From: an uncultured Actinomycetes bacterium
GTDB lineage: Bacteria; Actinomycetota; Acidimicrobiia; Acidimicrobiales; Microtrichaceae
Length of the DNA: 63,122 nt
NCBI GenBank assembly: GCA_903868545.1
Contig: CAIPVR010000306.1
Location: forward strand, 1 to 63,122
Direction of reading: 5' to 3'
In this document: piece by piece, positions 38,265-58,498 of the stretch
Layout of the letters: each line of letters starts with the position of its first letter
Position numbering within the stretch: position 1 is the stretch's first letter
Notes under the pieces: model-generated
The model's database searches: none
What the model was told of the DNA's origin: nothing
Seen by the model: only the letters and a program-made list of their open reading frames with translations
Made by a program: the position numbers and the translations under genes

Positions 38265-39020
38265 ATGGACCTGGGCCTGGAGGGGCGTGTCGCGATCGTG
38301 ACCGGCGCGAGCCGGGGCATCGGCCTCGCCGTGGTCGAACGGCTGGCCGCGGAGGGGTGCGAGGTGGTGGCCGTCAGTCGCTCGGGTGCCGACGGGCCCG
38401 GTCACCCCGTCGCTGCCGACGTGACGGATCCGGCTGCCGCGGGCCGGGTCGTCGGGGAGTGCCTCGACCGGTTCGGGCGTCTGGACGTGCTCGTGAACAA
38501 CGCAGGCGGCGCGGAGCCGGCGGCGCTCGAGCGGCTCACCGACGCCGACTGGCAGCGGGCGTTCGAGTTCAACTTCTTCGCGGCGGTCCGTTTCGCCGCC
38601 GCCTGCGCACCCGTGATGCGCGAACGCCGCTGGGGCCGCATGGTCCACGTCGCCTCGGTGAGCGGCCGTGAGCCCGACCAACGGTTCGCTCCCTACTCGG
38701 CGGCCAAGGCGGCCCTGCTCAACTTCTCGACGTCGTTGTCGCAGGCCTATGCCGCCGACGGAGTCCTCAGTTCGTGCGTGGTGCCGGGGATCACGCTCAC
38801 CGAGCTGGTGGCGGCCAACGCGGCCGGGACCGCGGCACGTACCGGGAGCTCGCCCGACGAGGTCATGGCCCGCCAGCTGGAGCACCACCGGGTGGCGGCC
38901 GGCCGCTTCGGGGAACCCGGCGAGGTGGCTGCGGCGGTGGCGTTCCTGGCCGGCGAGCCGGCGGCCTGGATCACCGGCGCCACGCTCGAGGTCGATGGGG
39001 GCACCCTCCGCTCGGTCTGA
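38265..39020 (+). CDS. short-chain dehydrogenase/reductase
   Basis: TGASRGIG, NNAG and YSAAK are present. TACGGT lies 8 nt upstream of the ATG. Confidence 0.85.
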   Translation: MDLGLEGRVAIVTGASRGIGLAVVERLAAEGCEVVAVSRSGADGPGHPVAADVTDPAAAGRVVGECLDRFGRLDVLVNNAGGAEPAALERLTDADWQRAFEFNFFAAVRFAAACAPVMRERRWGRMVHVASVSGREPDQRFAPYSAAKAALLNFSTSLSQAYAADGVLSSCVVPGITLTELVAANAAGTAARTGSSPDEVMARQLEHHRVAAGRFGEPGEVAAAVAFLAGEPAAWITGATLEVDGGTLRSV

Positions 39021-39108
39021 GTTCGGCAGCAAGGTGAGATGAAGGGAGCAGATGCAGGAGGTGTCCCTGATCGCAGGCTCAGTGACAGTCGACGGCAACC
39101 GAGAGGGC

Positions 39109-39158
39109 CGGGTCCTGCGAGGTCGGGTCCTACGAGGCCGGGCCCGGGTCCTGCAGGC
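39109..39158 (-). repeat. imperfect 15-bp repeat x3 spanning the CoA-ligase stop codon
   Basis: CGGGTCCTGCGAGGT, CGGGTCCTACGAGGC, (CGGGCC) CGGGTCCTGCAGGC. The stop TAG lies in unit 2, where the other units carry CAG. Confidence 0.7.
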
Positions 39159-40653
39159 GGTCCGCGAGCCCGGTCCGCACGATCTTGCCCATGGCGTTGC
39201 GGGGTAGGGCGGCGACCACCGCGATGGACTCCGGCACCTTGTAGCGGGCGAGGTGCTCGGCGAGGTGCGCCCGCAACGCGTCCACGTCGAGGTCCACCCC
39301 GGAGCGGGGCTCCACCAGCGCGCCCACCCGTTCGCCCAGGCGCTCGTCGGGCAGCCCGACCACCGCGCCGGCCGCGACGCCCGGGAACTCCGAGATCACC
39401 CGTTCGACCTCCGCCGGGTAGACGTTCGCCCCACCCCGGATGATCACCAGGCTCAGTCGGTCCTTCAGGTGCAGGTAGCCGTCCTCGTCGAGCAGCCCCA
39501 CATCGCCGGTGCGCAGTTCACCGTCCACCAGGGCGGCGGCCGTGGCCTCCGGCCGGTTCCAGTAGCCCAGCATCGGCCGGTAGCGGTCGTCGGCCGCGGA
39601 GATGCACACCTGCCCGGCGGTGCCCGCCGGTACCGAGGCGCCGTCGGCGTCGGCGACACGGATCCGCAGATGGGGGAGTGGCCGGCCGGAGGCCCCGGGC
39701 CGGTGGTCCGTCGCCCCGCCCCGCCCCTCGGGCCTCGCGTCGATCGACACCACCGTCGGCGCCTCGCTCAGCCCGTAGGTCGCGAGGACCGGCACCCCGA
39801 ACTTCTCCGCGAAGCCCCGCCGGATCGACTCGGGGCAGTCGGCCCCGCCGGTCCAGACCTCGTCGAGCGAGGCCAGGTCGGCGGCCGTGACCGTGGGGCT
39901 CGTCACCAGGCTGTGCAGCAGCGCCGGCGGGCCGTTCCAGGTGGTGACGGCCTCGGTGCGGATCCACTCGGCCACCCCGTCGGCGTCGATCCGGTCCATC
40001 ACGATCGACGTGCCACCGGCCTGCGACACGAGCAGCGTGGTGAGCACCGCCATGTTCAGCACGGTGAAGGGGAAGCAGTCACCCTTGCGGAGATCGGGTC
40101 CGTAGCGCCGGGTCCCGACCAGCACGGCGCCGGGCAGCAGGAGGTTGTGCTGGCTGTGCACCGCGCCCTTCGGGTGGCCGGTCGTGCCGCTCGTGTAGGC
40201 GAGACCGGCCGGAGCGAACGGGTCGGGGTCGGGCCCGCTCCACGGGCCCGCGGGTGCCGCGTCCACCGCCGCACGCCACGCGGTCGGGTCGATCGTGGGG
40301 ACGCCGAGGTCGGCGGAGCCGTCGTCGGTCAGCAGCAGGCGGGAGCCGCTGTCGTCGAGCAGGTACCGCTTCTCCGGTGCGGCGAGGGCGCGGTTCACGC
40401 CCACCCACACCGCCCCGAGGCGCATGGCGCCGTGGAACGCCACCACCACGTCCGCGTCGTTGGGGAGGCTCGCCGCCACCCGGTCCCCGGGCGCGACGCC
40501 GAGGTCGTGGAGGGCGTGGGCGGCCCGGTGGGCCTCGGCGTCGAGCTCCGCGTAGGTGAGCCGCCGGGTCCGGGTCACCAGCGCCTCACGGTCGGGGTCG
40601 GTGGCGAGGGCGTGGTCGAGGACCCGGGCCACGTTCGTGGGCACTGCTCCCAT
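39130..40653 (-). CDS. AMP-dependent acyl-CoA synthetase
   Basis: YTSGTTGHPKGA, TGDVGLLDEDGYLHLKDR and PRNAMGKI are present. I prefer ATG 40653 (MGAVPTNV) with TACGGT 8 nt upstream. The ORF-track start at 40683 lies inside the operator. Confidence 0.85.
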   Translation of the reverse strand: MGAVPTNVARVLDHALATDPDREALVTRTRRLTYAELDAEAHRAAHALHDLGVAPGDRVAASLPNDADVVVAFHGAMRLGAVWVGVNRALAAPEKRYLLDDSGSRLLLTDDGSADLGVPTIDPTAWRAAVDAAPAGPWSGPDPDPFAPAGLAYTSGTTGHPKGAVHSQHNLLLPGAVLVGTRRYGPDLRKGDCFPFTVLNMAVLTTLLVSQAGGTSIVMDRIDADGVAEWIRTEAVTTWNGPPALLHSLVTSPTVTAADLASLDEVWTGGADCPESIRRGFAEKFGVPVLATYGLSEAPTVVSIDARPEGRGGATDHRPGASGRPLPHLRIRVADADGASVPAGTAGQVCISAADDRYRPMLGYWNRPEATAAALVDGELRTGDVGLLDEDGYLHLKDRLSLVIIRGGANVYPAEVERVISEFPGVAAGAVVGLPDERLGERVGALVEPRSGVDLDVDALRAHLAEHLARYKVPESIAVVAALPRNAMGKIVRTGLADRLQDPGPAS

Positions 40654-40676
40654 GGCCCGGCACCGTACCCCCGCGA

Positions 40677-40692
40677 CTAACATCGGCGTCAG
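40677..40692. promoter_or_regulatory. operator-like palindrome, site 10
   Basis: CTAACATCGGCGTCAG lies in the divergent spacer between the CoA ligase (40653) and the ACAD operon (40713). Confidence 0.55.
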
Positions 40693-40712
40693 GTATCCGG
40701 GAGGCGTGCTGG

Positions 40713-41879
40713 ATGGATTTCGATCTGGGGGCGGGAGCGGCAGAGCTCCGAACCCGTCTGCGGACGCTCATCGAGCAGCACTTCGACCCGGGGTTCCTGG
40801 GGGCGTTCACCGACGATCCCGCCGACCTCGAGGCCACCCAGGCCTTCTGCCGGTTGCTCGCGGGGGAGGGCCTGCTCACCCTGGCGTGGCCCACCGAGTA
40901 CGGCGGCGGTGGTGGGTCGCTCTGGGACCAGACGGTGGTGCGCGAGGAGATGTGGGCGCACCACGAACCCCGCGGCGCCCAGTACATGGGCCTCAACTGG
41001 GTGGGCCCGGCGATCATGGCCCACGGCACGGCGGAGCAGAAGGCCCTCCACCTCCCCCCGATCGCGGCGGGGGAGGTGATCTGGTGCCAGGGATTCAGCG
41101 AGCCGGAGGCGGGCTCGGACCTGGCCGCGCTGCGGACCCGGGCCGAGCCGGTGGGGGACCCGGCGCGACCCGACGGGTGGCGCGTCACCGGCCAGAAGAT
41201 CTGGACCTCGTACGCCGGCATGGCCCAGTGGTGCATCATCGCCGCCCGCGTCGGTGCCGGTGAGCGCCACGAGGGCATCACCATGTTCCTCGTGCCGATG
41301 GACGCACCGGGCATCGAGGTGCGCCCCATCCGCTCGATGCTCGGACCCCACCACCTCAACGAGGTGTTCTTCGACGAGGTGCCGGCCGGGCCCGACGCGG
41401 TGCTCGGCGCCGTCGGCGGGGGCTGGTCGGTGATCCGTACGGCGCTCGCCCACGAGCGCGTGGGCATTGCCCGCTACGCGCGTTGCGAACGTCTCCTCTC
41501 GGAGATGGGTCGGGTGCTCGCCCCCCACTGGGACGAACTGCCGCCGTCGCTCGAGGTGGCCTGGGCCCGGGCGCTCGTCCAGGTCCGGGTGGCGCGGCTG
41601 CTCGCGTACCGCACCGTGCGGGCCCAGGAGAACGGTGAGGTCCCCGACGTGGCCGCGTCCTCGGCCCGCATCGCGGTGACCCAGTGCGACCAGGCCGTGG
41701 CCGAGGTGCTGTTCTCCGCCGCGGAACACCGAAGTCTGGAGGCAGGACCGGACGCGCCGGTGCACGGGGCGCTGGAGGACCACTGGCGCTACGCACAGGC
41801 GGCCACCGTGTCGAGCGGCACGATCGAGGTGCAGCGGATCATCGTGGCGAAGTCGCTCGTGAAGGGGGCCTCCGCGTGA
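40713..41879 (+). CDS. acyl-CoA dehydrogenase, alpha-type subunit
   Basis: CQGFSEPEAGSDLAAL, GQKIWTS and SSGTIEVQRIIVAKSL are present. RBS GGGAGG. Confidence 0.9.
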   Translation: MDFDLGAGAAELRTRLRTLIEQHFDPGFLGAFTDDPADLEATQAFCRLLAGEGLLTLAWPTEYGGGGGSLWDQTVVREEMWAHHEPRGAQYMGLNWVGPAIMAHGTAEQKALHLPPIAAGEVIWCQGFSEPEAGSDLAALRTRAEPVGDPARPDGWRVTGQKIWTSYAGMAQWCIIAARVGAGERHEGITMFLVPMDAPGIEVRPIRSMLGPHHLNEVFFDEVPAGPDAVLGAVGGGWSVIRTALAHERVGIARYARCERLLSEMGRVLAPHWDELPPSLEVAWARALVQVRVARLLAYRTVRAQENGEVPDVAASSARIAVTQCDQAVAEVLFSAAEHRSLEAGPDAPVHGALEDHWRYAQAATVSSGTIEVQRIIVAKSLVKGASA

Positions 41880-42844
41880 ACCCGGAGCTCCCCGCCGAGG
41901 CGGTGGAACTCGCGGACGCGGCCGCCCGCGCGTTCGCCGCACTGGGCGACGTCGACCTGGCCCGCCGGGCCGAGGTCGACCCGTCGATCCGCGCCACCGA
42001 GGTGGCTCCGGTGCTGGACCGGCTGGGGGTGGCCGACCTCGATCCCCGCGACGACGACGTGACGCTCGCCGCGGCCGCCGCGTTGTGCGAGGCGGCGGGA
42101 CGTGTCGCCCTGCCCTACCCGTTGGCGGCCGCGCTCGTCCGCGATCCCGACGGCCGCCCCACCGCCGCGGTGCCCGCCGGTGCGGCCCGCGTCGACCACG
42201 CCGAGCTCTTCCCTGAGTGGCGGGTGGGCCCGCTCGACGGCTCCGCCGCCGGAGTGGCGTCGTCGACGGGCGCCGCCCTGCACACCCGGCTCGGTCCCTT
42301 CGTCGGCGACCTCACGCCGGCCGCCGGCGACGGGACGGCGGCGCCGTACGACCTGCTGGTCCAGCAGTGTCTGGTCGCCTGGACCGTGCTGGGCGCGCTC
42401 GACCGGGCCGTCGCGCTGGCCACCGGACACGTCACCGGGCGCGTGCAGTTCGGCCGGCCGCTCGCCGAGTTCCAGGCCGTCCAGTTCCAGCTCGCCGACG
42501 CCGCGGTGGCGGTGGCCGGCCTGCGGGAGCTCGCCGGATTCACCCTCTGGCGGCTCCGTGCCGAACCGACCGGGGCGCGGGCCGACGTGCTGGCCCTCCG
42601 GCTCCACGCCCTCGAGGCGGCCCGGGCCGTGCTGCGCTCGGCCCAGCAGCTCCACGGTGCCGCGGGCGTGTGCGACGAGTACGACGTGTCGGTGATCACC
42701 CGGATGGTCCAGCCCGCCCTGCGGCTGCCGATGGGCGCCGAGCGCACCGCCACCGAGCTGGCGCGTGCCATCGCGTCCGACGGGTTCGCCGGGCTCTTCC
42801 CGCACGGGGCCGACCTCCGGGCCACGGGGGAGCCGGGCCGGTGA
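41876..42844 (+). CDS. acyl-CoA dehydrogenase-like, beta-type subunit (short; its N-terminal half lacks the SEPEAGSD-type region)
   Basis: The GTG start forms a GTGA overlap with the alpha-subunit stop. GRPLAEFQAVQFQLAD is present in the C-terminal helical domain. About 322 aa. Confidence 0.75.
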   Translation: MNPELPAEAVELADAAARAFAALGDVDLARRAEVDPSIRATEVAPVLDRLGVADLDPRDDDVTLAAAAALCEAAGRVALPYPLAAALVRDPDGRPTAAVPAGAARVDHAELFPEWRVGPLDGSAAGVASSTGAALHTRLGPFVGDLTPAAGDGTAAPYDLLVQQCLVAWTVLGALDRAVALATGHVTGRVQFGRPLAEFQAVQFQLADAAVAVAGLRELAGFTLWRLRAEPTGARADVLALRLHALEAARAVLRSAQQLHGAAGVCDEYDVSVITRMVQPALRLPMGAERTATELARAIASDGFAGLFPHGADLRATGEPGR

Positions 42845-44586
42845 CGGCCGCGGTGGCCACCACCTTCACGGGACCGCCGCTGGAGGAGGCCGAGGGCCTC
42901 GGCGCGCTCACCCTGCCGGGGTTCCTGGCCGAGGTGGTGGAACGGTCCGGTCCGGAGGAGGCGGTGGTCCTCGACGACCCCCTGCGCGACGGTGCGACGG
43001 TCCGCTGGAGCTACGACGACCTCGGGCGCGAGGCCCGGCGGATCGCTCGGGCGCTCGCGGCCACGGGCATCGGGCCCGGCCGGACGGTGGCGGTCCTCAT
43101 GGGCAACCGGCCGGAGGCCCTGGCCGCCATCTTCGGGGCGACGATGGCGGGGGCGGTCGCCGCCCCGGTGTCGACCTTCGCCCCACGACCCGAGCTCGGC
43201 GGCCTCCTCGTCGCCTGCTCCGCGGACATGGTGCTCACCCAGCACCGGCTGCTCGCCCGGCGTCCCGACGAGGACGTGGCCGCGGCGGCGGAGGCCCTGG
43301 CCCGGGCCGGCCGGGTGGTGTCGCTCGGCACCGACGGGTGGGACGCCTTCCTGGCCGCCGGTGACGACGACCACCTCGACGCCGTCGTCGACCGGCGAGC
43401 CGCGGAGCTCACCCCCGACGACCCGGCACTGGTGATCCTGAGCTCCGGCACGACGGCGGCCCCCAAGGCCGTGCTCCACGCCCACCGGTCGCCGTCGCTG
43501 CAGTTCTGGGTGCAGGCCCGGCTCTTCGGCCGCCACCCGGGGACCCGGATGTTCTCGGCCCTGCCGATCTTCTGGACCGCGGGCCTCAACACCGCGGTGG
43601 GCTCCACCCTGGCCGCCGGCGGGTGCTGGGTGGCGCAGGAGACCTTCGAGGCCGGCTCGGCGCTGGCGCTGCTCGAGCGGGAACGGGTGACCGAGCCCTA
43701 CACCCTTCCCCACCAGACCGCGGCCATGGCCGAGCGCCCCGACTGGGCCTCCACCGACCTCTCCGCGGTCCGTTGCGCCTACGGGAAGGGCGCGTACGCC
43801 CGGCACCCGTCGGTGCACCCCGATCCGGGCTGGATCATGCCGGTGGGCTACGGGCTCTCGGAGACGTGCGCGTTCGTGGCGGGCTACCGGAGTGACGACT
43901 CCCGCGAGCAGGTGAAGGTGGGCCACGGCCGCCTCCTCCCCGGCACGCGCCTGCGGGTGGTCGACCCCGACTCCGGCCGGGTGCTCGGCCCCGGGCAGGA
44001 GGGGGAGCTGGCGGTGGCCGGGGCCACGCTGATGCTCGGCTACCTCGGGCGGGACCCGGCCTCCTGCTTCGACGGCGACGGCTTCTTCCACACCGGCGAC
44101 TCCGGCCACGTCGACGGCGACGGCATCGTGCACTACACGGGCCGTCGCACCGAGATGATCAAGACCGGCGGGGCCAACGTCTCCCCGGCCGAGATCGAGG
44201 TCGCCCTCCGGGCCTGCCCCCCCGTGAAGCTCAGCCGTGTCCTCGGCGTGCCCGACGAGCGCCTCGACCAGCTGGTGGTCGCCTGCATCGTGTGCCGGGA
44301 GGGCATGACGGCGACCGAGGACGAGGTGACGGCCTTCCTCCGGGAGCGGGTCGCCGCCTACAAGGTGCCGAAGCGGGTGCTCTTCCTCGCCGAGGAGGAG
44401 GTGCCGATGACCGCCGGTGGGACCAAGGTGCGCGACGAGGAGTTGCGGCCGATCGTCCTCGCACGCCTCGGCCTCGCCGACGGCCCTGCCACCGGGAACG
44501 CCGCCGGCCCTGCCACCGGGAACGCCGGCACGGCCCCCACCCCGACCACCACCCGACCGATGCAGCCAGAACGGGAGACCACGTGA
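42841..44586 (+). CDS. AMP-dependent synthetase/ligase
   Basis: LSSGTTAAPKAV, FHTGDSGHVDGDGIVHYTGR and YKVPKRV are present. GTGA overlap at the start. The C-terminal tail holds a 24-bp x2 repeat. Confidence 0.85.
   Translation: MTAAVATTFTGPPLEEAEGLGALTLPGFLAEVVERSGPEEAVVLDDPLRDGATVRWSYDDLGREARRIARALAATGIGPGRTVAVLMGNRPEALAAIFGATMAGAVAAPVSTFAPRPELGGLLVACSADMVLTQHRLLARRPDEDVAAAAEALARAGRVVSLGTDGWDAFLAAGDDDHLDAVVDRRAAELTPDDPALVILSSGTTAAPKAVLHAHRSPSLQFWVQARLFGRHPGTRMFSALPIFWTAGLNTAVGSTLAAGGCWVAQETFEAGSALALLERERVTEPYTLPHQTAAMAERPDWASTDLSAVRCAYGKGAYARHPSVHPDPGWIMPVGYGLSETCAFVAGYRSDDSREQVKVGHGRLLPGTRLRVVDPDSGRVLGPGQEGELAVAGATLMLGYLGRDPASCFDGDGFFHTGDSGHVDGDGIVHYTGRRTEMIKTGGANVSPAEIEVALRACPPVKLSRVLGVPDERLDQLVVACIVCREGMTATEDEVTAFLRERVAAYKVPKRVLFLAEEEVPMTAGGTKVRDEELRPIVLARLGLADGPATGNAAGPATGNAGTAPTPTTTRPMQPERETT
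44482..44529 (+). repeat. 24-bp tandem duplication in the ligase C-terminal tail
   Basis: GGCCCTGCCACCGGGAACGCCGCC / GGCCCTGCCACCGGGAACGCCGGC. It encodes GPATGNAA GPATGNAG. Confidence 0.85.
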
Positions 44587-45818
44587 CCACGGACGACGCC
44601 ACCGGCGAACTCGACGTGTCCGACCTGGACCGCCACATGGGCGTCCCGATGGAGCCGGGACTCCTGAAGGAGCCGGTGGCCACCAACGACATCCGCCGTT
44701 GGGTCCAGGCGATGCACTACCCGAACCCGCTCCACTACGACGACCGCTGGGCCGCCGCGAGCCGCTTCAGCGGGATCGTGGCCCCCCAGTCGTTCACCGT
44801 GGCCTGCGACACGAGCCACGGCTGTTCGCCGGCCCAGGTGGGCCGGATCCCCGAGTCGCACCTGATCTTCGGCGGTGACGACTGGTGGTTCTTCGGACCC
44901 CGGGTGTGGCCCGGCGACCACCTGATCTGCCACCGGATGCCCTACGACTACCGGGTCACCGAGACCAAGTTCGCCGGGCCGACGTGCTTCCAGCGGGGCG
45001 ACACCCTCTACGTGAACCAACGTGGCGAACGGGTGGCGCTCCAGCGCTCCACCGCCATCCGCTACCGGCCCCGGCGGGCCAAGGAGAAGCAGCTGTTCTC
45101 CGAGCCGCAGGAGCCGTCGTGGACCGACGGCCAGCTGGCGGAACTCGAGGAGCGCAAGCTCGCCTTCATCGACCAGATCCAGGCGCTCGGTCACGACCCC
45201 CGCCCGTGGGGGTCGGTGTCGGCGGGCGACCGGCTGGCCGAGCACGTGCTCGGGCCCCACAGCCTCGCCAGCTTCACCACCGAGTGGCGCGCCTACCCGA
45301 TGACCACGTGGGGGGCCACCCGCAAGGGGCCGACCTCCCTCTCGGCCGAGGAGCTCGGCTACACGAAGGAGATGGCCGGCCTCGAGGGGGACCGGGAGGT
45401 GGAACGGGTGAACCCCGAGCTCACCGACGGCGCCTACCACGGGCCCTCCCGCGGTCACCTCCAGCCCCGGTGGGCCGAGCACGTGGGCATGCCCCGCGGC
45501 TACGGGTACGGGGCCTCGATGGGGGCGTGGGTGCTCGACTACGTGTCCGGCTGGGCGGGCGAGTGGGGGATGGTGACCCACTCCGAGGCGCAGTACCGCA
45601 ACCCGGCGTTCACCGGCGACGCCACCTTCCTCAGCGGGGTGGTGGCCGAGACCTGGGTGGACCGCCGTGGTCGTCATCTCGTGAGGGTGGACGTGGACAT
45701 GCGCAACCAGGACGACGCCGTCCTGGCCCGGGCGAAGGTGGAGGTGGCCCTCCCCGACGAGGCCGCCCTCGCCGCCGGCCGGGTGAACGACGGACAGGAA
45801 CGAGGGTCGATCCGATGA
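44583..45818 (+). CDS. double-hotdog (MaoC/FAS1-like dehydratase) protein
   Basis: 411 aa in two hotdog-like halves. The N-terminal half has NDIRRWVQAMHYPNPLHYD and the C-terminal half has an AQYRNPAFTGD region. GTGA overlap at the start. Confidence 0.7.
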   Translation: MTTDDATGELDVSDLDRHMGVPMEPGLLKEPVATNDIRRWVQAMHYPNPLHYDDRWAAASRFSGIVAPQSFTVACDTSHGCSPAQVGRIPESHLIFGGDDWWFFGPRVWPGDHLICHRMPYDYRVTETKFAGPTCFQRGDTLYVNQRGERVALQRSTAIRYRPRRAKEKQLFSEPQEPSWTDGQLAELEERKLAFIDQIQALGHDPRPWGSVSAGDRLAEHVLGPHSLASFTTEWRAYPMTTWGATRKGPTSLSAEELGYTKEMAGLEGDREVERVNPELTDGAYHGPSRGHLQPRWAEHVGMPRGYGYGASMGAWVLDYVSGWAGEWGMVTHSEAQYRNPAFTGDATFLSGVVAETWVDRRGRHLVRVDVDMRNQDDAVLARAKVEVALPDEAALAAGRVNDGQERGSIR

Positions 45819-46795
45819 CCGGGCACCGCATCTTCTCCACGGCGCCGCTGCGCGGCGAGGGACTGGAGCGCCTCCGTGCGCTGGGGGAGGTGGTGGTCGA
45901 CCCGTGGATCGACCACGACCCCCTGCGCCTCTACGACAGTGCCGCCCTCGCCGAACGGGCCGCGGCGGAGGGGGCCACGGTCCTCATCTGCGAGGCCGAC
46001 TCCTGCAAGGGGCCGGTGTTCGACCTCCCGCTGGTGGCCATCGGGTCCACCCGCGGCGACCCGACCAACGTCGACCTCGCCGGCGCCACCGCAGCGGGCA
46101 TCCCCGTCCTGCGGGCCCCGGGCCGCAACGCCGACGGCGTGGCCGAACTGGCCGTCGCGCTCGCGTTGGCCGCCACCCGGGGCCTGGTCGCCGCCGACCG
46201 TGACGTCCGCGAGGGCCAGGTGTACCGGGGTGGCTCCATCCCGTACCAGCGCTTCCGCGGGTGGCAGCTCGCCGGCCGGACCGCCGGCATCGTCGGCTAC
46301 GGCGCAGTGGGCCGGGCCGCGGCCTGGCGTTTCGAGGGGCTGGGCATGCGGGTGATCAGCTCGGACCCGTTCGCCGCCGACGCCACCCACGACCTCGATG
46401 ACCTCCTCGCCGAGGCGGACCTGGTGTCGATGCACGCCGCGGTCACCCCCGACACGGTCGGGCTGATCTCCGCCGAACGGCTCGCGCTCATGCGGCCCGG
46501 CTCGGTGTACGTCAACACCGCCCGGGCCGCCCTGCACGACCTCGACGCCCTCACCGCGGCGCTGGCCGACGGACGCCTGGCCGCTGCGGGGCTCGACCAC
46601 TTCGAGGGCGAGAACCTCGCCGTGGACCACCCGCTCGTGGGCATGGCGAACGTGGTGCTGACCCCCCACATCGGCGGCGCCACCTACGACACCGAGGCCA
46701 ACCACACCGCGCTGATGGCCTCGGGCCTCGAGGCCCTGCTGCGCGGCGAGACCCCGTCCAACCTCGCCAACCCGGAGGTCATGTCCCGTGACTGA
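45815..46795 (+). CDS. D-isomer-specific 2-hydroxyacid dehydrogenase
   Basis: GIVGYGAVGRAAA NAD fold, VNTARAAL and TPHIGGAT are present. ATGA overlap at the start. Confidence 0.85.
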   Translation: MTGHRIFSTAPLRGEGLERLRALGEVVVDPWIDHDPLRLYDSAALAERAAAEGATVLICEADSCKGPVFDLPLVAIGSTRGDPTNVDLAGATAAGIPVLRAPGRNADGVAELAVALALAATRGLVAADRDVREGQVYRGGSIPYQRFRGWQLAGRTAGIVGYGAVGRAAAWRFEGLGMRVISSDPFAADATHDLDDLLAEADLVSMHAAVTPDTVGLISAERLALMRPGSVYVNTARAALHDLDALTAALADGRLAAAGLDHFEGENLAVDHPLVGMANVVLTPHIGGATYDTEANHTALMASGLEALLRGETPSNLANPEVMSRD

Positions 46796-47462
46796 GACCA
46801 CGTCACCCACCACCAGCTCGCCCACCACCACGCCGGAGGCGGTGCTCGCCGCGGCGAGGACGATGCTCGAGCTCGGCCTCGTGGAGGGCACGTCGGGCAA
46901 CATCTCGGGCCGGCTGGAGGGTGGCCTGGTGTGCCTCACGCCCTCCTCGGTCGCCTACGACACGATGACCCTGGAGGACCTCGTCGTGGTGGACCTCGAG
47001 GGGGAGGTGGTGTCCGGCACCCGCTCGCCGACCACCGAGAAGGACCTCCACCTGTCGGTGCTGCGCCGCTATCCGGAGCTGGGCTCGGTGATCCACACCC
47101 ACGCGGTGTACGCCACGATGTTCGCCCTGGCCCACGAACCGATCCCCGCGGTGATCGAGGAGGTCGTGGTGTACGTGGGCGGCGACGTGCCGTGCTGTGA
47201 GTACAAGGGGACCGGTTCCCGCGAACTCGGCGAGGAGGTGGCGTCGCACCTCGCCGACCGCGGCGCGGCGCTGCTCGCCAACCACGGCCTCGTCACGTGC
47301 GCGGCCACGCCGGAGACGGCGCTGCACCACGCGGGCCTCGTGGAACGGACCGCCAAGATCATCTGGGGGGCGCGGTCGATGGGGGCCACGATCCACCCGT
47401 TGCCGGAGAAGGTGAACCGCGACATGGCCGGTGTGTACCGCTTCGTGCGGGAGAACCCGTGA
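46788..47462 (+). CDS. class II aldolase/adducin-family protein
   Basis: GTSGNISGR and VIHTHAVYAT (zinc His motif) are present. The GTG start overlaps the previous gene by 8 nt. Confidence 0.85.
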   Translation: MTETTSPTTSSPTTTPEAVLAAARTMLELGLVEGTSGNISGRLEGGLVCLTPSSVAYDTMTLEDLVVVDLEGEVVSGTRSPTTEKDLHLSVLRRYPELGSVIHTHAVYATMFALAHEPIPAVIEEVVVYVGGDVPCCEYKGTGSRELGEEVASHLADRGAALLANHGLVTCAATPETALHHAGLVERTAKIIWGARSMGATIHPLPEKVNRDMAGVYRFVRENP

Positions 47463-47899
47463 CGATCGGCGACCCGGCCTGGCGCGCCGCGGTGGCCGAG
47501 GCGCTCGACGCCGCGGTGCCCGGCTCGGTGGAGCTGGGCGCCCTCGACTACGTGGAGCAACTGCTCGGCGCGCTCGACCACGACCCGCCCCGGATCTGGG
47601 CGGCGCCGGGCAGCTGGGACGGCGCCGGGGGTGATCGCCCGGCCGGGGCCCCGTCGTGGCTGGAACTGGGCCCGTGGGAGCGACAGGCCTGGGAACGGCG
47701 CATCGAGGGATGGCGCGAGGCCTACGAGCGCGTGGCCGCGGGCCGCGCCGAGGAGGACGACCTCCGGACGGTGCACGTGCACGCCTGCGAGGGCACCTAC
47801 GGCGATCCGGCCTACGGGGGTAACCGCGACGGGGGTGGTTGGGCGCGCATCGGGTTCCCCGAGCCGCTGCACCCGCCGGCCCGGGAGGTGGCCGGGTGA
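47459..47899 (+). CDS. gluconate 2-dehydrogenase subunit-3-like small subunit (no Tat signal)
   Basis: Family-typical CEGTYGDPAYGGNRDGGGWARIGFP is present. The GTG start forms a GTGA overlap. The N-terminus VTIGDPAWRAAV has no twin-arginine leader. Confidence 0.7.
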   Translation: MTIGDPAWRAAVAEALDAAVPGSVELGALDYVEQLLGALDHDPPRIWAAPGSWDGAGGDRPAGAPSWLELGPWERQAWERRIEGWREAYERVAAGRAEEDDLRTVHVHACEGTYGDPAYGGNRDGGGWARIGFPEPLHPPAREVAG

Positions 47900-49656
47900 G
47901 CACCTGGGACTGCGACGCGGTGGTCATCGGGTCGGGGCCGGGGGGCTCCACCGCGGCCGAGGTGCTCTGCGCGGCCGGCTGGTCGGTGGTGGTGCTCGAG
48001 AAGGGCCGCAACCACCTGATCGACACCGAGCCGCCGCACGATCCGCTGCGGCACTTCGCGAACGACGAACTCGCTGCGCACCGCCGTCACCTCCTCGGGC
48101 CGGACCCGCTGCTCGAGCCCCGCAGCTACCGGCGTTCGGCCGAGGACGGCGATCGCCTGGTGGTGGGGGAGGTCAACAACCTGCCCTCCACGGTCGGCGG
48201 CGGAGGCGTCCACGCCGACGCGAAGCTCCCCCGGTTCCGGGAGGAGGACTTCCGGCTCCGGAGCGAGCGCGGACCGGTCGACGACGCGTCGGTGGAGGAC
48301 TGGCCCCTCTCCTACGACGACCTCGAACCGCACTACGCGGCGGTCGAGGAACTCTTCGGGGTCGCCGGCGAGGCCGGCGCCAACCCCTTCGCCGCGCCCC
48401 GCAGCTCGCCCTACCCGCTCCCGCCGGGCGACGACATGCCGATGGCCGTGGTCACCGCGGCGGCCGCCGCCCGCGCCGGCCTCCATCCGTACCGGGCCCC
48501 CACCGGGGTCAACAGCGTCCCGAACGACGGGCGGCCCGCCTGCACCGACTGCGGCTTCTGCGGCGGGTACGGCTGTCCGGTCCAGGCCAAGAGCGACCCG
48601 GTGAGCGCCCTGCAGCGGGCGCTGCGGTCCGGGCGCTGCGACCTGCGACCGGAGTGCTACGCCACCGAGCTGGTTCTCGACGCCACCGGCCGGCGGGCCA
48701 CCGGGGTGCGGTACCTCGACCTGCGGGAGCACCCGGAACCGGCGACCCGGGAGGTCCGGGCCCGCCACGCCGTGATCCTGGCGGGCGGGGCGTTCGAGAC
48801 GCCCCGGTTCCTGCTGCGCCAGGGCCTCGGCGGGGACCTCGTCGGACGGTTCCTCACGTACCACTACCAGACCTTCACCGTCGGCATGTTCCCCCGGGAT
48901 CGCTTCCCGGACGGCACGGGCGGGGAGCGGGGCCGCAGCGTGACCCACCTCCACGACGACCTGATGGTCGACACGCCGGAACTGCGCCGGGCGGCGGCCG
49001 GGGCGGGCCTGCCGTGGGTGCGCGGCGGGGTGGTGGAGCACGGCGCCGGACAGATGCCGGTGGAGGAGGCCGTCACCTACGGTGCGGGGCCGCACCACCT
49101 CGACTCGATGCGCGACAGCGCGCTCCGTCGCCGGATGTGGGTGTTCACCATGCAGGGCGAGGACCTCCCGCAGGGCTCCAACCGGGTCGACCTCGACCCG
49201 TCGGTGCGCGACGTGTGGGGGCTCCCCGCCGGCCGGGTGACCTACGCCCCGCACCCCCACGAGCTGGTGGCCTCGGCGTTCGCGGGGCCCCTCCACGAGG
49301 CGGTGCTCACCGATGCCGGGGCCGAGGTGGCCTTCAGCGCCACCTCGCCGCCGCAGGGTGACCTCGACGTGCACCTCGCCGCCAACCCGCTGGGGGTGGC
49401 ACCCGCGTCGCGCCACGTCATGGGGACGGCACGCATGGGGTCGGACCCGGCCACGTCGGTGGTGTCGGCCGAGCAGCGGTTGTGGGGCGTCGACAACGTC
49501 CTCGTGTGCGACTCCTCGGTGTTCGTCACCTCGACCGGGTACAACCCGACGCTGACCCTCGCCGCACTGGCCCACCGGGCCACCACCCTGCTGGCGGGGG
49601 CTCAGCCGTCGGCCCGCGCCACCGCCTCGGCGGTCAGGCGGCGGAAGCGTTCGTAG
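47896..49656 (+). CDS. GMC-family FAD oxidoreductase (catalytic subunit) with Cys-rich insert
   Basis: DAVVIGSGPGGS FAD fold, CTDCGFCGGYGCP cysteine cluster and a C-terminal GMC region (HVMGTARMG, NPTLTLAALA). GTGA overlap at the start. Confidence 0.85.
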   Translation: MSTWDCDAVVIGSGPGGSTAAEVLCAAGWSVVVLEKGRNHLIDTEPPHDPLRHFANDELAAHRRHLLGPDPLLEPRSYRRSAEDGDRLVVGEVNNLPSTVGGGGVHADAKLPRFREEDFRLRSERGPVDDASVEDWPLSYDDLEPHYAAVEELFGVAGEAGANPFAAPRSSPYPLPPGDDMPMAVVTAAAAARAGLHPYRAPTGVNSVPNDGRPACTDCGFCGGYGCPVQAKSDPVSALQRALRSGRCDLRPECYATELVLDATGRRATGVRYLDLREHPEPATREVRARHAVILAGGAFETPRFLLRQGLGGDLVGRFLTYHYQTFTVGMFPRDRFPDGTGGERGRSVTHLHDDLMVDTPELRRAAAGAGLPWVRGGVVEHGAGQMPVEEAVTYGAGPHHLDSMRDSALRRRMWVFTMQGEDLPQGSNRVDLDPSVRDVWGLPAGRVTYAPHPHELVASAFAGPLHEAVLTDAGAEVAFSATSPPQGDLDVHLAANPLGVAPASRHVMGTARMGSDPATSVVSAEQRLWGVDNVLVCDSSVFVTSTGYNPTLTLAALAHRATTLLAGAQPSARATASAVRRRKRS

Positions 49657-50987
49657 CGGTCCGTGGCCGCCTCGTGGGCACGGGCGTCGGGTTCGACCTG
49701 GTGCGACGTGCGGGCCCACCGGGCCGCGTCGGTCATCGACCGCTCCAGTCCGGCGGTGCAGCGGGCCATGAACGCCGTGCCGAGCGCGGCCCCCTCGGGC
49801 ACGGCCACCACGTCGACCGGCAGGCCGGTGCTGTCGGCCAGGGCCTGCATCCACGCCCCGGAGCGGCTGCCCCCGCCGGTGGCGACGATCCGTCGCGGGC
49901 GGGCCCCGACGGCCGCGGCGAGATCCAGCTGGTGGCGGACCACGAAGCCCGTGGCCTCGTAGGCGGCCCGGAGGAGGTGGGCCTGCTCGTGCTGGAGCGA
50001 CGCGCCGTGGAGCTCGGTCCGCAGGTCGCGGCGGTGCAGCGGTACCCGCTCGCCCCGCGGGTACGGGAGCCAGACCGGGAGGTCGTCGGTGGGTGCCGGA
50101 TCGTGATCCGCCCCGACCGGGACCCCCAGCCACCGGTGCACCTGGTCCACGAACAGGCCGCCGGCGTTGCTGGGCCCACCGATCAGCACCTTGCCCGGCG
50201 CGGTGTGGGGGACGGTCCAGAGGCCGGGGGTCGTCGCCCAGTCGTCGATCACGGCCCACGTGATGAGGGTGGTCCCGCAGATCACCAGCACGTCGCCGGT
50301 GGCATCAGCGCCGGCCACCACCTGCTCGCCGAGCGCGTCGATCGTGCCGCCCCCCACGAGGGCCCCGGCGGCGGGGTGCCCGTCGAGGACGGTGCCGGCC
50401 GGCGAGGTGCCGGGCACCACGACGGGGAGGGCCTCGACGGGCACGCCCGCCTCCGCGGCCCGCGCCGGGTCCCATCCCTGGAAGTCGAACAACGGGACCG
50501 CGGTCATCGCCGTCGCCGAGTCGATGGCCCCCACTCCGCACAGGGCGTGGTTGGCCACGGCCTGTGCGGGCCAGTACCCGGCCGCGTCGGGTGCGTGGGC
50601 GGCGAGCCAGCGCAGGAACGCCAGCAGCTCGCCGGAGTCACCCGCCTCGTCGGGCCGGTTGTCCTCGGTGACGCCACGGTGGTCGCCGTAGAGGAGGCCG
50701 GGGGAGCAGCCGTGGCCCGAACGGTCCACCGCGCCGAGCGAGGGGACCATCGCCGAGACGTTCACCGCCGCCACGTCGTGGCCGGCGGCCACACCGGTGA
50801 GGGCGTCGAGCACGCCGCGACGCCACGCGGTGTCGATGTCGTGCTCGAAGGCCCCGGGCCCGGGCCGCCGGAGCGGATGGGGGATCCTCGTCCGTGACAG
50901 GACGGTGCCGTCCTCGTCGGCCGCGACCGCCTTCACCGAGGTGGTGCCGATGTCGACGCCCACCGTCACCGTGCGAGAACCTGACAT
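49602..50987 (-). CDS. FGGY-family carbohydrate kinase (xylulokinase-like)
   Basis: GVDIGTTSVKA and ATGGGSRS are present. ATG 50987 lies inside the palindrome, with TATTCT 7 nt upstream. The 3' end overlaps the convergent GMC gene by 55 bp. Confidence 0.85.
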   Translation of the reverse strand: MSGSRTVTVGVDIGTTSVKAVAADEDGTVLSRTRIPHPLRRPGPGAFEHDIDTAWRRGVLDALTGVAAGHDVAAVNVSAMVPSLGAVDRSGHGCSPGLLYGDHRGVTEDNRPDEAGDSGELLAFLRWLAAHAPDAAGYWPAQAVANHALCGVGAIDSATAMTAVPLFDFQGWDPARAAEAGVPVEALPVVVPGTSPAGTVLDGHPAAGALVGGGTIDALGEQVVAGADATGDVLVICGTTLITWAVIDDWATTPGLWTVPHTAPGKVLIGGPSNAGGLFVDQVHRWLGVPVGADHDPAPTDDLPVWLPYPRGERVPLHRRDLRTELHGASLQHEQAHLLRAAYEATGFVVRHQLDLAAAVGARPRRIVATGGGSRSGAWMQALADSTGLPVDVVAVPEGAALGTAFMARCTAGLERSMTDAARWARTSHQVEPDARAHEAATDRYERFRRLTAEAVARADG

Positions 50988-50996
50988 GGGTGTCAG
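50981..50996. promoter_or_regulatory. operator-like palindrome, site 11 (contains kinase start codon)
   Basis: CTGACATGGGTGTCAG lies in the divergent FGGY kinase / Zn-ADH spacer. Confidence 0.6.
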
Positions 50997-51025
50997 AATA
51001 GGCCCCCACCGACCGAGAGGGCCCG

Positions 51026-52267
51026 ATGCGAGCACTGGTCTACGGCACTGCGACCCAGCCCTTCGAGCCACCGGAGGGGGCGCCGGAGCTGGTGCGGAAC
51101 CTCGCGGCCACCCCGTGCGCCCTCCAGGAGATCCCCGACGCCCGGCCGCTCCGGCCCGACTGGTACGTCGTGCGCCCTCTGCTCACCGGCATCTGCGGCT
51201 CCGACGCCAAACAGATCCTCATGGACTTCGAGGGCGACACCGACAGCGCGATGAGCGGGTTCGTGTCGTTCCCGCAGGTGCTCGGCCACGAGGTGGTGGG
51301 CCTGGTGGAGGAGGCCGGGCCCGAGGCCGAGGGGTTCGAGGTGGGCGACCGGGTGGTGCTGAACCCGTGGCTGTCCTGCGCCACCCGGGGGATCTCGCCG
51401 GTGTGCCCGGCGTGCGAGCACGGCGACCTCAGCCTCTGCTGGAACTTCACCTCCGACGCCTTCGCGAAGGGGATCCACACCGGCACGTCGGCCGACGCCA
51501 CCGGCGGGTACGCGGAACTCCTGCCGGCCCACTCCTCGATGCTGTTCGCGGTCCCCGAGGGTCTCGACGACCGCCGGGCCGTCCTGGCCGACCCGTTCGC
51601 CGTGTCGCTGCACTCGGTGACCCGGCACCCCCCGCCACCGGGCGGGCGGGTGCTGGTCTGGGGCGCAGGTGCACTCGGGTGCTCGGCGGTGGCGGCGTTG
51701 CGGGCGCTGTATCCCGACGTGGAGATCGGCGTGGTGGCCCGCTTCGACGCCCAGGCCGACCTCGCGAGCGGCCTCGGGGCGCACGCGGTGTTCCGCCCCG
51801 CCCCGAAGGCCGAGATGGTGGAGACACTGGCCGCATGGTCCGGCGGGGTCCTCCGTCCCACGATGGAGGGCCTCGACGGCATCCCGATGTGCCATCCCGG
51901 CTTCATCGACGTCGCCTACGACACCATCGCCAAGCCGGAGACGTTCGAGGTCGAGGTGCGCGTGCTGGCGGCGCGGGGGACCCTGGTCAAGAGCGGCGTC
52001 CATCCGCCGGCGCGCTGGGAGTGGAGCCCGCTCTACTTCAAGGAGATCTCGATGGTGGGGTCGAACGCCTTCGGCATCGAGGAGGTGCGGGGCGAACGGC
52101 GCCACGGCATCGAGCACTACCTGCGCCTGGCCGCCGCCGGGGAGGTGGACCTGTCGCGGATGCTCACCCACGTCGTCCCGCTGAGCGAGTGGCAGCGGGC
52201 CTTCACCCTGGTCGGCGACCAGGCCGCGAGCGGCGCGATCAAGGTGGCGATCGACCCGGCGCGCTGA
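51026..52267 (+). CDS. zinc-dependent medium-chain alcohol/polyol dehydrogenase
   Basis: CGSD, GHEVVG and CPACEHGDLSLC structural-zinc loop are present. GAGALG is present. RBS GAGAGGG. Confidence 0.85.
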   Translation: MRALVYGTATQPFEPPEGAPELVRNLAATPCALQEIPDARPLRPDWYVVRPLLTGICGSDAKQILMDFEGDTDSAMSGFVSFPQVLGHEVVGLVEEAGPEAEGFEVGDRVVLNPWLSCATRGISPVCPACEHGDLSLCWNFTSDAFAKGIHTGTSADATGGYAELLPAHSSMLFAVPEGLDDRRAVLADPFAVSLHSVTRHPPPPGGRVLVWGAGALGCSAVAALRALYPDVEIGVVARFDAQADLASGLGAHAVFRPAPKAEMVETLAAWSGGVLRPTMEGLDGIPMCHPGFIDVAYDTIAKPETFEVEVRVLAARGTLVKSGVHPPARWEWSPLYFKEISMVGSNAFGIEEVRGERRHGIEHYLRLAAAGEVDLSRMLTHVVPLSEWQRAFTLVGDQAASGAIKVAIDPAR

Positions 52268-54820: not shown

Positions 54821-55578
54821 GAACCACCACCGAGGAGATCGCCGGCCTCGTCGACCCGGCCGGGGACACCGGTGGGCAGGAGCACCGTGGAGGACTGGTC
54901 GCCGAGCCCGGCCGGTGTGCCGTCGTAGGCGACCTCGCCCTGACGGAGCACCACCACGCGGTCGGCGAGCGACAGGGCGTGGTCGAGGTGCTGCTCGACC
55001 ACCAGCAGCGCGGTGCCCGCGTCGCGCACCTGGCCCAGCACCCGGTACACGTCCGCGGTCACGATCGGGGCCAGGCCGAGCGACAGCTCATCCGCGATGA
55101 GCAGGCGGGGCCGCAGCACGAGGACCCGGGCCAGGGTGAGCATCCGTTGCTCGCCGCCCGAGAGCGTGCCCGCCACCTGGTTCCGGCGTTCGCCGAGGCG
55201 GGGGAAGAGTTCGAACGCCTCGTCGAGGCCGGCCCTGACGCCGGGGCCGGACGCCGCGCCGCGGAAGGCGAGCTGCAGGTTCTCGGCGACGGTGAGCGTG
55301 GCGAACACCGCCCTGCCCTCGGGGGCGTGGGCGATGCCCGCCCGGGCGAACGTGTGGGCGGGTTCACCGGTGAGGTCCTTCCCGTCGACCAGCACCGCGC
55401 CGGCGGTCGGTGCGAGCAGTCCGGAGGCCGCCCGGGCCACGGTGGACTTCCCCGACCCGTTGGGGCCGACCAGCGCCACCGCAGAGCCGGGTCGAACCTC
55501 GAAGCTCACGTCGAACAGGGCCCGGAACGGGCCGTAGGCGGCGTCCACGTGGTCGAGCGCCAGCACGGGTGCGGTCAC
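54817..55578 (-). CDS. livF: branched-chain-amino-acid-type ABC transporter ATP-binding protein
   Basis: Walker A GPNGSGKST, signature LSGGEQ and Walker B LLIADE are present. The GTG start forms a GTGA overlap with the livG stop (frame-checked). Confidence 0.85.
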   Translation of the reverse strand: MTAPVLALDHVDAAYGPFRALFDVSFEVRPGSAVALVGPNGSGKSTVARAASGLLAPTAGAVLVDGKDLTGEPAHTFARAGIAHAPEGRAVFATLTVAENLQLAFRGAASGPGVRAGLDEAFELFPRLGERRNQVAGTLSGGEQRMLTLARVLVLRPRLLIADELSLGLAPIVTADVYRVLGQVRDAGTALLVVEQHLDHALSLADRVVVLRQGEVAYDGTPAGLGDQSSTVLLPTGVPGRVDEAGDLLGGGS

Positions 55579-58468: not shown

Positions 58469-58498
58469 GACGGGGTGGCCGGTCGCGTCCGTCCGCCG

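Follow-up and report, generated by a model that had tools for sequence, protein, structure and literature searches.

An overlapping chain of acyl-CoA and sugar-type enzyme genes with a shared putative operator in uncultured Acidimicrobiales

The 63,122-nucleotide (nt) contig CAIPVR010000306.1 of an uncultured actinobacterium (assembly GCA_903868545.1), referred to here as the window, carries a chain of eight overlapping genes at positions 40713–49656. The chain encodes an alpha and a beta acyl-CoA dehydrogenase (ACAD), an AMP-forming acyl-CoA ligase, a double-hotdog hydratase, a D-2-hydroxyacid dehydrogenase family enzyme (2HADH), a class II aldolase, a small gamma-like subunit, and a GMC flavoenzyme. 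The host draft genome is 3.69 Mb in 335 contigs (the window is contig C306), is 97% complete with a GC content of ~74%, and is placed within the Acidimicrobiales, family Microthrixaceae. DNA runs covering the 40650–50600 region come from freshwater, lake, and drinking-water metagenomes of six studies; a look-up of RNA runs over it listed none.

The described systems closest to the acyl-CoA half of the chain are the alpha2beta2 ACADs of steroid degradation. These are PDB entry 4x28 of Mycobacterium tuberculosis, which we take to be ChsE4-ChsE5, and Tcur3481-Tcur3483 of Thermomonospora curvata (6wy8/6wy9). As in those enzymes, a full alpha gene and a shorter beta gene are adjacent; unlike them, identity is low and no KstD or IpdE2 scores over its cutoff. 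The best solved relatives of ACAD alpha are Tcur3483 (6wy9_A, E 6e-41), 8hk0, and 4x28_A (E 2e-37). ACAD beta matches Tcur3481 (6wy8_A) at E 4.5e-09 and 4x28_D at E 1.7e-06, and an ordinary ACAD, 5ol2_C, matches it best of all. Steroid systems use a ChsH1/ChsH2 pair for hydration, whereas a single fused double-hotdog protein of 411 amino acids (aa) is found here. Its fold is that of the MaoC-like (R)-specific enoyl-CoA hydratases, which include MSMEG_6754 (4v12), 5i7n, the mesaconyl-CoA (4e3e/8hgn) and itaconyl-CoA (8huc) enzymes, and hydratase 2 of MFE-2. However, identity to these hydratases is 10–15%, and the protein differs by a helical insert of ~130 residues between its two hotdogs and by the motif-like YPNPLH, which lacks the Asp of the hydratase 2 motif.

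Within the sugar-type half, the aldolase is closest to FucA (1fua) and to DrdA (6btd), a 5-deoxyribulose-1-phosphate aldolase. The zinc His, the Glu, and the phosphate-site motifs align, whereas a Glu replaces the neighbouring-subunit Tyr of FucA and the score falls below equivalog level. A 2HADH gene followed by an aldolase gene, with an FGGY kinase gene nearby, is also the layout of the mycobacterial Rv0727c-type locus, whose M. tuberculosis neighbours are the 2HADH Rv0728c and the FGGY kinase Rv0729. Literature on Rv0727c, Rv0728c, and Rv0729 gives no title on their function among the matches listed. Acid-sugar catabolism through OtnC, the 3-oxo-tetronate 4-phosphate decarboxylase, likewise applies a dehydrogenase, a kinase, and a class II aldolase-family enzyme to an imported organic acid. 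In that system the kinase is, we assume, of the DUF1537 type, whereas here it belongs to the FGGY family and no isomerase is seen. The aldolase scores 92.8 bits with the OtnC model NF043034, far under the 250-bit cutoff.

The GMC flavoenzyme and its small partner resemble the gamma-alpha FAD-dependent glucose dehydrogenase (FAD-GDH) of Burkholderia cepacia (BcGDH, 6a2u) and fructose dehydrogenase (7w2j). The match covers the full length of the catalytic subunit, a Cys-rich loop is present, the small partner is encoded directly upstream, and the modelled interface touches the Cys loop. Unlike those enzymes, the pair shows no twin-arginine signal, has no cytochrome c subunit gene in its locus, and is embedded in an acyl-CoA operon. 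A preliminary description of this DNA recognised no pathway in the enzyme mix, and we know of none that fits; a literature search that took in few subscription-journal papers found no description of this enzyme combination or of its operator.

The chain consists of the following genes.

40713..41879, plus strand: ACAD alpha, 388 aa (Pfam N, M, and C ACAD domains)
41876..42844, plus strand: ACAD beta, 322 aa (the C-terminal ACAD domain alone recognisable by Pfam)
42841..44586, plus strand: lig, second AMP-forming acyl-CoA ligase of the locus, 581 aa (AMP-binding, E 1e-61)
44583..45818, plus strand: double-hotdog MaoC-type (de)hydratase, 411 aa (FAS1_DH_region, E 4e-28)
45815..46795, plus strand: 2HADH, 326 aa (2-Hacid_dh_C, E 7e-49)
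46788..47462, plus strand: class II aldolase/adducin-family enzyme, FucA/DrdA-like, 224 aa (Aldolase_II, E 6e-50)
47459..47899, plus strand: small gamma-like subunit, divergent Gluconate_2-dh3 member, 146 aa (sub-threshold PF13618)
47896..49656, plus strand: GMC flavoenzyme of the FAD-GDH/fructose dehydrogenase catalytic-subunit type (Pfam GMC)

All eight frames are open, with a third-position GC of 0.92–0.96, and a purine-rich Shine-Dalgarno-like stretch lies just 5' of every start. Six of the seven links are 4-nt overlaps (GTGA at 41876, 42841, 44583, 47459, and 47896; ATGA at 45815) and one is an 8-nt overlap at 46788, so that the coordinates, frames, and junctions are as first described. 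The domain calls are upheld by Pfam and NCBIfam, that of the gamma-like small subunit included; at default thresholds the scan confirms the chain genes except the 146-aa protein, which reaches no family. The background frequency of such overlaps was obtained by following 4-, 8-, or 1-nt overlapping starts between coding-like open reading frames (ORFs) through the whole genome. An overlapping-start link occurs at 587 of 3134 coding-like ORF ends (18.7%). Chains of one to seven links number 310, 73, 25, 7, 3, 1, and 1, and the single seven-link chain (first link 41877) is the eight-gene chain. The tight coupling is real, and the chain is the longest of the genome. Scans of 38000–53500 gave no sigma-70 promoter-like site and two terminator-like sites, both on the minus strand and at chance level; both scans are uninformative for an actinobacterium of 74% GC.

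The chain is a lineage-level fusion of two blocks, each also found apart. Block A comprises a divergent ligase gene (lig0), the ACAD alpha/beta pair, lig, the double-hotdog hydratase, and an upstream short-chain dehydrogenase/reductase (SDR). Block B comprises the 2HADH, the FucA-like aldolase, the small subunit with its Fe-S-motif GMC partner, an FGGY kinase, and zinc-dependent alcohol dehydrogenases (Zn-ADHs). For comparison, 80 species-representative loci were retrieved by alignment of the hotdog protein, with an identity of at least 73% in all. These loci and a same-genus genome are metagenome-assembled genomes of Microthrixaceae, Iamiaceae, Ilumatobacteraceae, or Acidimicrobiales. Downstream layouts were counted in 54 loci with at least 5.2 kb of flank and upstream layouts in 54 loci with room. 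An even sample of the order added 301 genomes from 185 genera.

The whole arrangement, with the same overlaps, recurs in other genera of the family (G001, G008, G022, G024). It is conserved beyond the lineage, and a lineage-specific juxtaposition is excluded. The most conserved core is the ligase-hotdog pair: lig adjoins the hotdog gene in 66 of 72 loci, and G020 and G025 retain this pair alone. The divergent layout of lig0 followed by ACAD alpha, ACAD beta, and lig is kept in 38 of 54 loci with upstream room. Downstream of the hotdog gene, 13 of the 54 loci carry the full chain, six carry hotdog, 2HADH, and aldolase without GMC next, and 14 have a gene inserted before 2HADH-aldolase, which in four scanned loci (L044, L054, L050, L109) encodes a major facilitator superfamily (MFS) transporter. 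Where no small-GMC pair adjoins, the next genes after the aldolase encode a Peripla_BP_6 binding protein and Liv-type ABC components; in family f20, the GMC gene is 7–9 kb further along, past the locus flanks.

The overlaps themselves are also conserved. Within block A they are kept at ACAD alpha-beta in 35/49 loci, ACAD beta-lig in 45/52, and lig-hotdog in 52/72. Within block B they are kept at 2HADH-aldolase in 42/44, aldolase-small subunit in 10/16, and small subunit-GMC in 13/15. At the block boundary the hotdog-2HADH overlap is kept in 33/49 loci, and 15 more are classed as far.

Across the 301 genomes, a hotdog orthologue is present in 37 (19 of the 185 genera), an aldolase homologue in 94, and a GMC homologue in 60. 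The aldolase lies less than 3 kb from the hotdog gene in 13 of the 37 hotdog-positive genomes and 6–16 kb away in eight, which makes 21 genomes in eight families. The mid-range group includes one unpublished genome (G088); with it left out, the mid-range genomes number seven and the families seven. The association also recurs without the hotdog. Four hotdog-less genomes (G207, G276, G289, G169) carry MFS-2HADH-aldolase and small-GMC with a different ligase/ACAD pair, 28–36% identical to that of the window; a caprolactamase-like HyuA/HyuB pair accompanies these in G207, G276, and G289, and G169 has a crotonase and a TetR gene instead. Among 26 GMC-centred loci, the small-subunit gene is next to GMC in 25, where "next to" means order among the queried families, and the two are accompanied by the L105-type ligase and ACAD pair in eight, another ACAD in five, and a ligase alone in four. 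The L105 layout (9891–19851) reads MFS-2HADH-aldolase, HyuB/HyuA, small-GMC, a mycothiol-type MDMPI or CDGSH protein, an ACAD, and a CasI/FadD1-like ligase. It is also seen in L106, L107, and L111, with the operator described below at several gene starts.

A sulfatase of 763 aa (window 35893–38184, minus strand) travels with the cluster. Its copies are 77–94% identical in L016, L022, L026, L036, and L037 and beside the detached block B of G105, and 54% identical in L050. This association hints at a sulfated substrate.

The preliminary description took the tight coupling to argue for a single pathway or complex, which in that form is not supported for all eight genes. A functional link between the blocks is well supported, because they share a regulon and a recurrent neighbourhood. 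One fixed unit of eight proteins is excluded, because the blocks also occur apart: an aldolase homologue is present without a hotdog orthologue in 61 of the 301 genomes, the 14 boundary insertions separate the blocks, and in G105 they lie 1.2 Mb apart. There, 2HADH-aldolase-small-GMC-ZnADH2-glyoxalase, FGGY, ZnADH, ABC genes, and the sulfatase form one unit away from the hotdog cluster. Sub-complexes are indicated only for ACAD alpha-beta and GMC-small subunit.

Both short divergent regions of the locus, lig0/ACAD alpha and FGGY/ZnADH, contain a 16-bp palindrome of the form CTRACA-N4-YGTCAG, found by pattern search.

40677..40692, no strand: operator copy CTAACATCGGCGTCAG, in the lig0/ACAD alpha divergent region
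50981..50996, no strand: operator copy CTGACATGGGTGTCAG, a perfect palindrome overlapping the FGGY start

The operator copy noted at the FGGY/Zn-ADH pair in the preliminary description is real, and the pair has this operator in common with the chain. With one mismatch allowed, the window holds nine sites (3296, 3929, 5603, 7075, 18497, 25945, 31841, 40677, and 50981), or 13 strand matches against 0.57 expected, and none of 100 shuffles reaches 13. Most of the nine are at gene starts or in divergent intergenic regions by our own gene calls. Exact sites number six in the genome, three of them in the window, and the reversed control gives none. The other three are on contigs C238 (two) and C57, beside Amidohydro_2/SDR/ACAD genes, beside ECH/ALDH/CoA-transferase genes, and before a PhyH-family gene. 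The pattern of sites suggests that this putative operator marks a small dedicated regulon.

The motif follows the blocks in related genomes. It is present in exact form in 34 of 100 loci and stands at the lig0/ACAD alpha junction in the six that were checked (L016, L038, L052, L056, L061, L077). L056 and L050 have a second copy before MFS-2HADH, at the block boundary. A site equivalent to that of FGGY/ZnADH is present in G001 (L017) and G105 (L108). A search that allowed one mismatch places the motif ahead of both 2HADH and FGGY/ZnADH where block B stands detached in G105. In L104–L107 (G169, G207, G276, G289) the same search finds it at the starts of 2HADH, MFS, or HyuB. Contig C238, which carries two exact operator copies, also encodes a 424-aa protein with two TetR_N domains (G000:C238:6081–7352, minus strand; L101). 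This protein is only a candidate for the regulator.

Block A would activate and desaturate organic acids. Two members lie upstream of the chain.

38265..39020, plus strand: SDR, candidate 3-hydroxyacyl-CoA dehydrogenase of block A (Pfam adh_short, E 2e-46)
39130..40683, minus strand: lig0, divergent AMP-forming acyl-CoA ligase, start at 40683 or 40653 (AMP-binding, E 2e-68)

The SDR gene is upstream of lig0 in many related loci, with an identity of 51–95%. Against NCBIfam, lig0 reaches 373 bits with PRK06187 and 277 bits with a CasG-like model, both below cutoff, and lig reaches 253 bits with a FadD3-family model that has a cutoff of 657. The ACAD alpha and beta genes are one open frame in G024 (L014 1484–3607). 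Elsewhere in the window, a 702-aa ACAD (16191–18299, minus strand) has a domain order that suggests a fused beta-then-alpha enzyme. Both would be Rosetta-stone hints of an alpha-beta complex.

An AlphaFold2 model of the hotdog protein, built on a 26-row alignment, is predicted with good scores (predicted local distance difference test, pLDDT, 89.5; predicted template modelling score, pTM, 0.90) and shows the double hotdog fold with its helical insert. Its top Foldseek matches are 5i7n, 4v12, 4e3e/8hgn, and 8huc (E 2e-17 to 1e-11, probability 1.00). In sequence, the match to ChsH1/ChsH2 covers the N-terminus only (E 1e-4), and the Pfam model MaoC_dehydratas gives 16.6 bits against a cutoff of 27. 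The catalytic motif of hydratase 2 includes an Asp and a His. Residues 46–51 of the N-terminal hotdog read YPNPLH, in which the Asn, Pro, and His are kept and a Tyr occupies the expected position of the motif Asp. At least 90% of 26 family members keep N48 and P49, and H51 is invariant among close orthologues only. A 50%-identity library holds 1648 representatives of the family at E ≤ 0.001 and 160 at E ≤ 1e-30, labelled by their sources as "acyl dehydratase" or "hypothetical protein".

In block B, the nearest solved relative of the 2HADH is glyoxylate reductase 6bii (E 3e-45), and archaeal glyoxylate reductases and phosphoglycerate dehydrogenases are closest. The aldolase scores 246.3 bits with PRK05874 (cutoff 308), which we take to be the mycobacterial Rv0727c type, and 110.7 bits with TIGR01086 fucA (cutoff 400). 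Alignments with FucA and 6btd have E values of 1e-32 to 1e-29. The residues of FucA are presumed to act as zinc-binding His, catalytic Glu, and phosphate-site motifs, with Tyr113 of the neighbouring subunit taking part in catalysis. Compared with 7x78/1fua, three His and the Glu are kept (HTHAV/HNHAV, ANHG/QHHG, TTEKDLH/SSEWRFH), as are the phosphate-site stretches GN.S, TPSS, and TTE. The position of the neighbouring-subunit tyrosine is a Glu (PAVIEEV versus PAIHYMI).

The small protein's own match to PF13618 has an E of 0.017 and 15.9 bits (cutoff 23.4). Thirteen of 15 orthologues match PF13618 at E ≤ 10 (best E 4.6e-05), and a 198-aa relative matches at 4.6e-15. The nearest ESM Atlas cluster bears the Gluconate_2-dh3 name (score 0.97), and the sequences of solved structures give no match at E ≤ 10. 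Judged by eye, none of the 15 orthologues or the 198-aa relative has a twin-arginine signal (RR with a hydrophobic N-terminus).

The GMC protein aligns with 6a2u_B at E 4.6e-30 across residues 3–565, and with fructose dehydrogenase likewise. Cys 216, 219, 222, and 227 are invariant in 14 of 14 orthologues and fall in the region of the BcGDH Cys loop, as a putative Fe-S motif. In BcGDH, the loop cysteines Cys212/213/218/222 bind a 3Fe-4S cluster (PMC6719666); the spacing CC-x4-C-x3-C in BcGDH differs from the C-x2-C-x2-C-x4-C found here. Modelling of the complex gives an interface score (ipSAE) of 0.94 versus 0.00 for the best of three controls; of the reference cases, 116 of 157 solved complexes attain the mark applied to this score, as do 2 of 215 mismatched pairs. 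At least 93% of contacts agree between runs, the partner pLDDT is at least 88, and the interface includes GMC residues 214–229. The small subunit is thus predicted to bind GMC, and the pass may partly reflect likeness, because an alpha-gamma complex of the family is already solved. The Pfam hits of the scanned window genes include no cytochrome family.

The remaining members and accessories of block B lie downstream of the chain.

49602..50987, minus strand: FGGY carbohydrate kinase, 461 aa from a revised start (FGGY_N/C)
51026..52267, plus strand: Zn-dependent polyol-type dehydrogenase (ZnADH), 413 aa (ADH_N/ADH_zinc_N)
52287–53282, minus strand: F420-type luciferase-like monooxygenase family (LLM) oxidoreductase, block B accessory
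53284–53727, minus strand: glyoxalase-like protein, block B accessory
53777–54820, minus strand: second Zn-ADH (ZnADH2), block B accessory
55575..59872, minus strand: Liv-type ABC transporter (ATPase, permease, Peripla_BP_6 binding protein)

A convergent FGGY kinase and a divergent Zn-polyol dehydrogenase had been described as flanking the chain. Their identities and layout are retained, and the kinase start is moved: it is most likely the ATG at 50987, which opens MSGSRTVTVGVDIGTTS, rather than 51071, because in the longer ORF the FGGY_N match starts only at residue 36, and in the shorter one the alignment with xylulokinase 2itm starts at residue 9. The kinase matches 2itm at E 2e-23 and the XylB model at 135 bits (cutoff 380). 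At their 3' ends the GMC and FGGY genes share 55 nt (49602–49656), and no terminator-like hairpin was detected between them. ZnADH reaches a sub-cutoff 89 bits with an IolM-like model, and copies 75–78% identical adjoin FGGY in relatives. ZnADH2 and the glyoxalase-like gene come after GMC in G105, G172, and G029. A transporter of the same Liv type is encoded directly 3' of the aldolase in other genera. For the MFS transporter at the block boundary, the highest NCBIfam scores come from the D-galactonate and aromatic-acid symporter subfamilies, in each case below cutoff.

The rest of the window has a similar composition. Minus-strand pairs of a thiolase-like (Thiolase_C_1) and a DUF35 gene (ChsH2-C OB-fold and zinc ribbon) lie at 1617–3274 and 28086–29923; these we assume to resemble the steroid side-chain retro-aldolase Ltp2-DUF35. 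Further genes encode ACADs (including the fused one), ligases, a MaoC hydratase, a crotonase, three Amidohydro_2 proteins, LLM oxidoreductases, and a flavin-monooxygenase-like protein with pyridine-nucleotide oxidoreductase domains. Between 5700 and 14216, adjoining acyl-CoA genes, are a GH4 glycosidase, an Abhydrolase_7-type alpha/beta-hydrolase, and a complete hexuronate route (UxaC, a mannitol-dehydrogenase-family reductase, UxaA, a PfkB kinase, and KDPG aldolase). The motif copies at 5603 and 7075 are by the GH4/hexuronate genes. The regulon reading gains support from these window genes as a whole, because the same mixed chemistry occurs elsewhere in the window under the same motif.

The best reading of the locus is one regulon, not one protein complex, with a composite or hydroxylated organic acid as substrate. 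Its two separable catabolic blocks would be co-induced for the same growth substrate or its two halves, an account that we favour tentatively. In block A, the ligases would form the CoA thioester of a bulky or branched organic acid, the heteromeric ACAD would desaturate the thioester at the alpha,beta position, and the hotdog protein would hydrate the enoyl-CoA, after which the 3-hydroxyl would be oxidised. In block B, a polyol or sugar-acid moiety would be oxidised and phosphorylated, and the phospho-keto intermediate would be split or decarboxylated on zinc. The 2HADH may then interconvert the resulting 2-oxo and 2-hydroxy acid, and block B would include an organic-anion MFS or a Liv-type ABC transporter. 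A repressor, possibly of the TetR family, would bind CTRACA-N4-YGTCAG in front of both blocks. Joint induction would make sense if the natural substrate yields both moieties or if the products of one block feed the other. We infer the substrates, the reaction directions, the regulator, and co-transcription.

Several observations weigh against this account. In 21 of the 54 loci no 2HADH-aldolase lies directly 3' of the hotdog gene. Among the 37 hotdog-positive genomes, the aldolase is far off or on another contig in 12, and four have no aldolase at E ≤ 1e-40. The junction-overlap counts are biased upward, because the start nearest the upstream stop was always chosen, and the linkage counts stand for fewer independent events than they suggest, because related genomes are not independent samples. 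In the NCBIfam scan, none of the cluster proteins reaches an equivalog cutoff, and the scores point to no substrate. The chain contains no hydrolase able to split a conjugate, and no regulator gene was found in the window, with 38 gap ORFs included in the scan.

A different arrangement of the same enzymes would take a single skeleton through both blocks in one linear CoA-dependent pathway. A hydroxylated or sugar-derived carboxylic acid would be imported, activated with CoA, desaturated, and (de)hydrated, then oxidised by GMC-gamma and the 2HADH and cleaved or decarboxylated by the aldolase; a polyhydroxy acid would in this way be broken down through CoA esters. Ligase, ACAD, hydratase, dehydrogenase, and C-C lyase formally make up the five steps of a beta-oxidation cycle, and translational coupling extends over the block boundary in the 33 of 49 loci counted above. 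The same reading can draw on the non-orthologous ligase/ACAD genes that accompany small-GMC in hotdog-less genomes, on the crotonase that replaces the hotdog in G169, and on the MFS gene with its sub-cutoff organic-anion symporter matches between hotdog and 2HADH. However, sugar-phosphate aldolases are the closest relatives of the aldolase, which retains the phosphate-site motifs of FucA; the FGGY sugar kinase goes with block B; and the blocks occur apart. We are aware of no case in which a D-2HADH or a member of this aldolase family uses a CoA ester, although no search was aimed at this point. Such a pathway is the main alternative and appears rather unlikely. In its most novel form, which is improbable, the Acidimicrobiales would possess an undescribed hybrid of beta-oxidation and sugar-acid chemistry for a hydroxylated or sugar-derived organic acid. 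A GMC-gamma Fe-S flavoenzyme of the cytoplasm that lacks a cytochrome, a D-2HADH, and the FucA-like zinc enzyme would then share one carbon skeleton with the ligase, heteromeric ACAD, and hotdog hydratase of block A, under a dedicated palindromic operator. The chain might instead reflect operon compaction alone, with two unrelated pathways brought together in a streamlined high-GC genome, in a catabolic island under a broad regulator. Overlapping starts are indeed common in this genome, either block also occurs without the other, catabolic genes of many kinds crowd the window, and the motif also precedes other lipid-type genes on C238 and C57. Compaction is nevertheless unlikely, given that the blocks remain less than 16 kb apart in 21 of 37 genomes and eight families despite rearrangement and orientation change, that so rare a motif stands before both blocks even when they are apart, and that the association recurs with non-orthologous acyl-CoA genes.

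Degradation of a steroid, sterol, or bile acid is a very improbable explanation. The GMC protein would be a ring-hydroxyl oxidase and block A a ChsE/ChsH/FadD-type side-chain beta-oxidation system. The nearest solved relatives of block A are of this kind (Tcur3483, Tcur3481, the 4x28 chains, ChsH1/ChsH2), as are the top sub-threshold models of the ligases (CasG, CasI, FadD3, FadD17); two thiolase-like/DUF35 pairs are in the window, and a sulfatase adjoins. Yet KstD and IpdE2, the two ring-degradation markers searched for, reach at best 75.1 bits (cutoff 788) and 139 bits (cutoff 450) in the genome, a draft that is 97% complete but fragmented, and no ring-cleavage genes are among the scanned window genes. 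The GMC protein belongs to the sugar dehydrogenase subfamily, its cholesterol oxidase match being 62 bits over the C-terminal 60 residues only, and the aldolase, 2HADH, and FGGY kinase would be left unexplained. With KstD and IpdE2 below curated cutoffs, a steroid pathway is rejected as the main explanation. Routes for dimethylsulfoniopropionate (DmdBCD), carnitine (CaiABCD), levulinate (Lva), pimelate (PimCD), methylsuccinate/mesaconate, and erythritol were dropped for want of a specific match, in a comparison based on general knowledge of these systems and on sub-cutoff NCBIfam scores.

Little is known of the carbon sources of Acidimicrobiia, a largely uncultured class that abounds in lakes, drinking water, and activated sludge. 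The cluster would provide these bacteria with a cytoplasmic flavoenzyme of the FAD-GDH/fructose dehydrogenase type without export signal or cytochrome subunit. The cluster spans at least eight families of the order and has its own operator. Because it is conserved, has this operator, and matched no pathway in the literature searches, it would mark a class of substrates that annotation does not name and that is important to its host.

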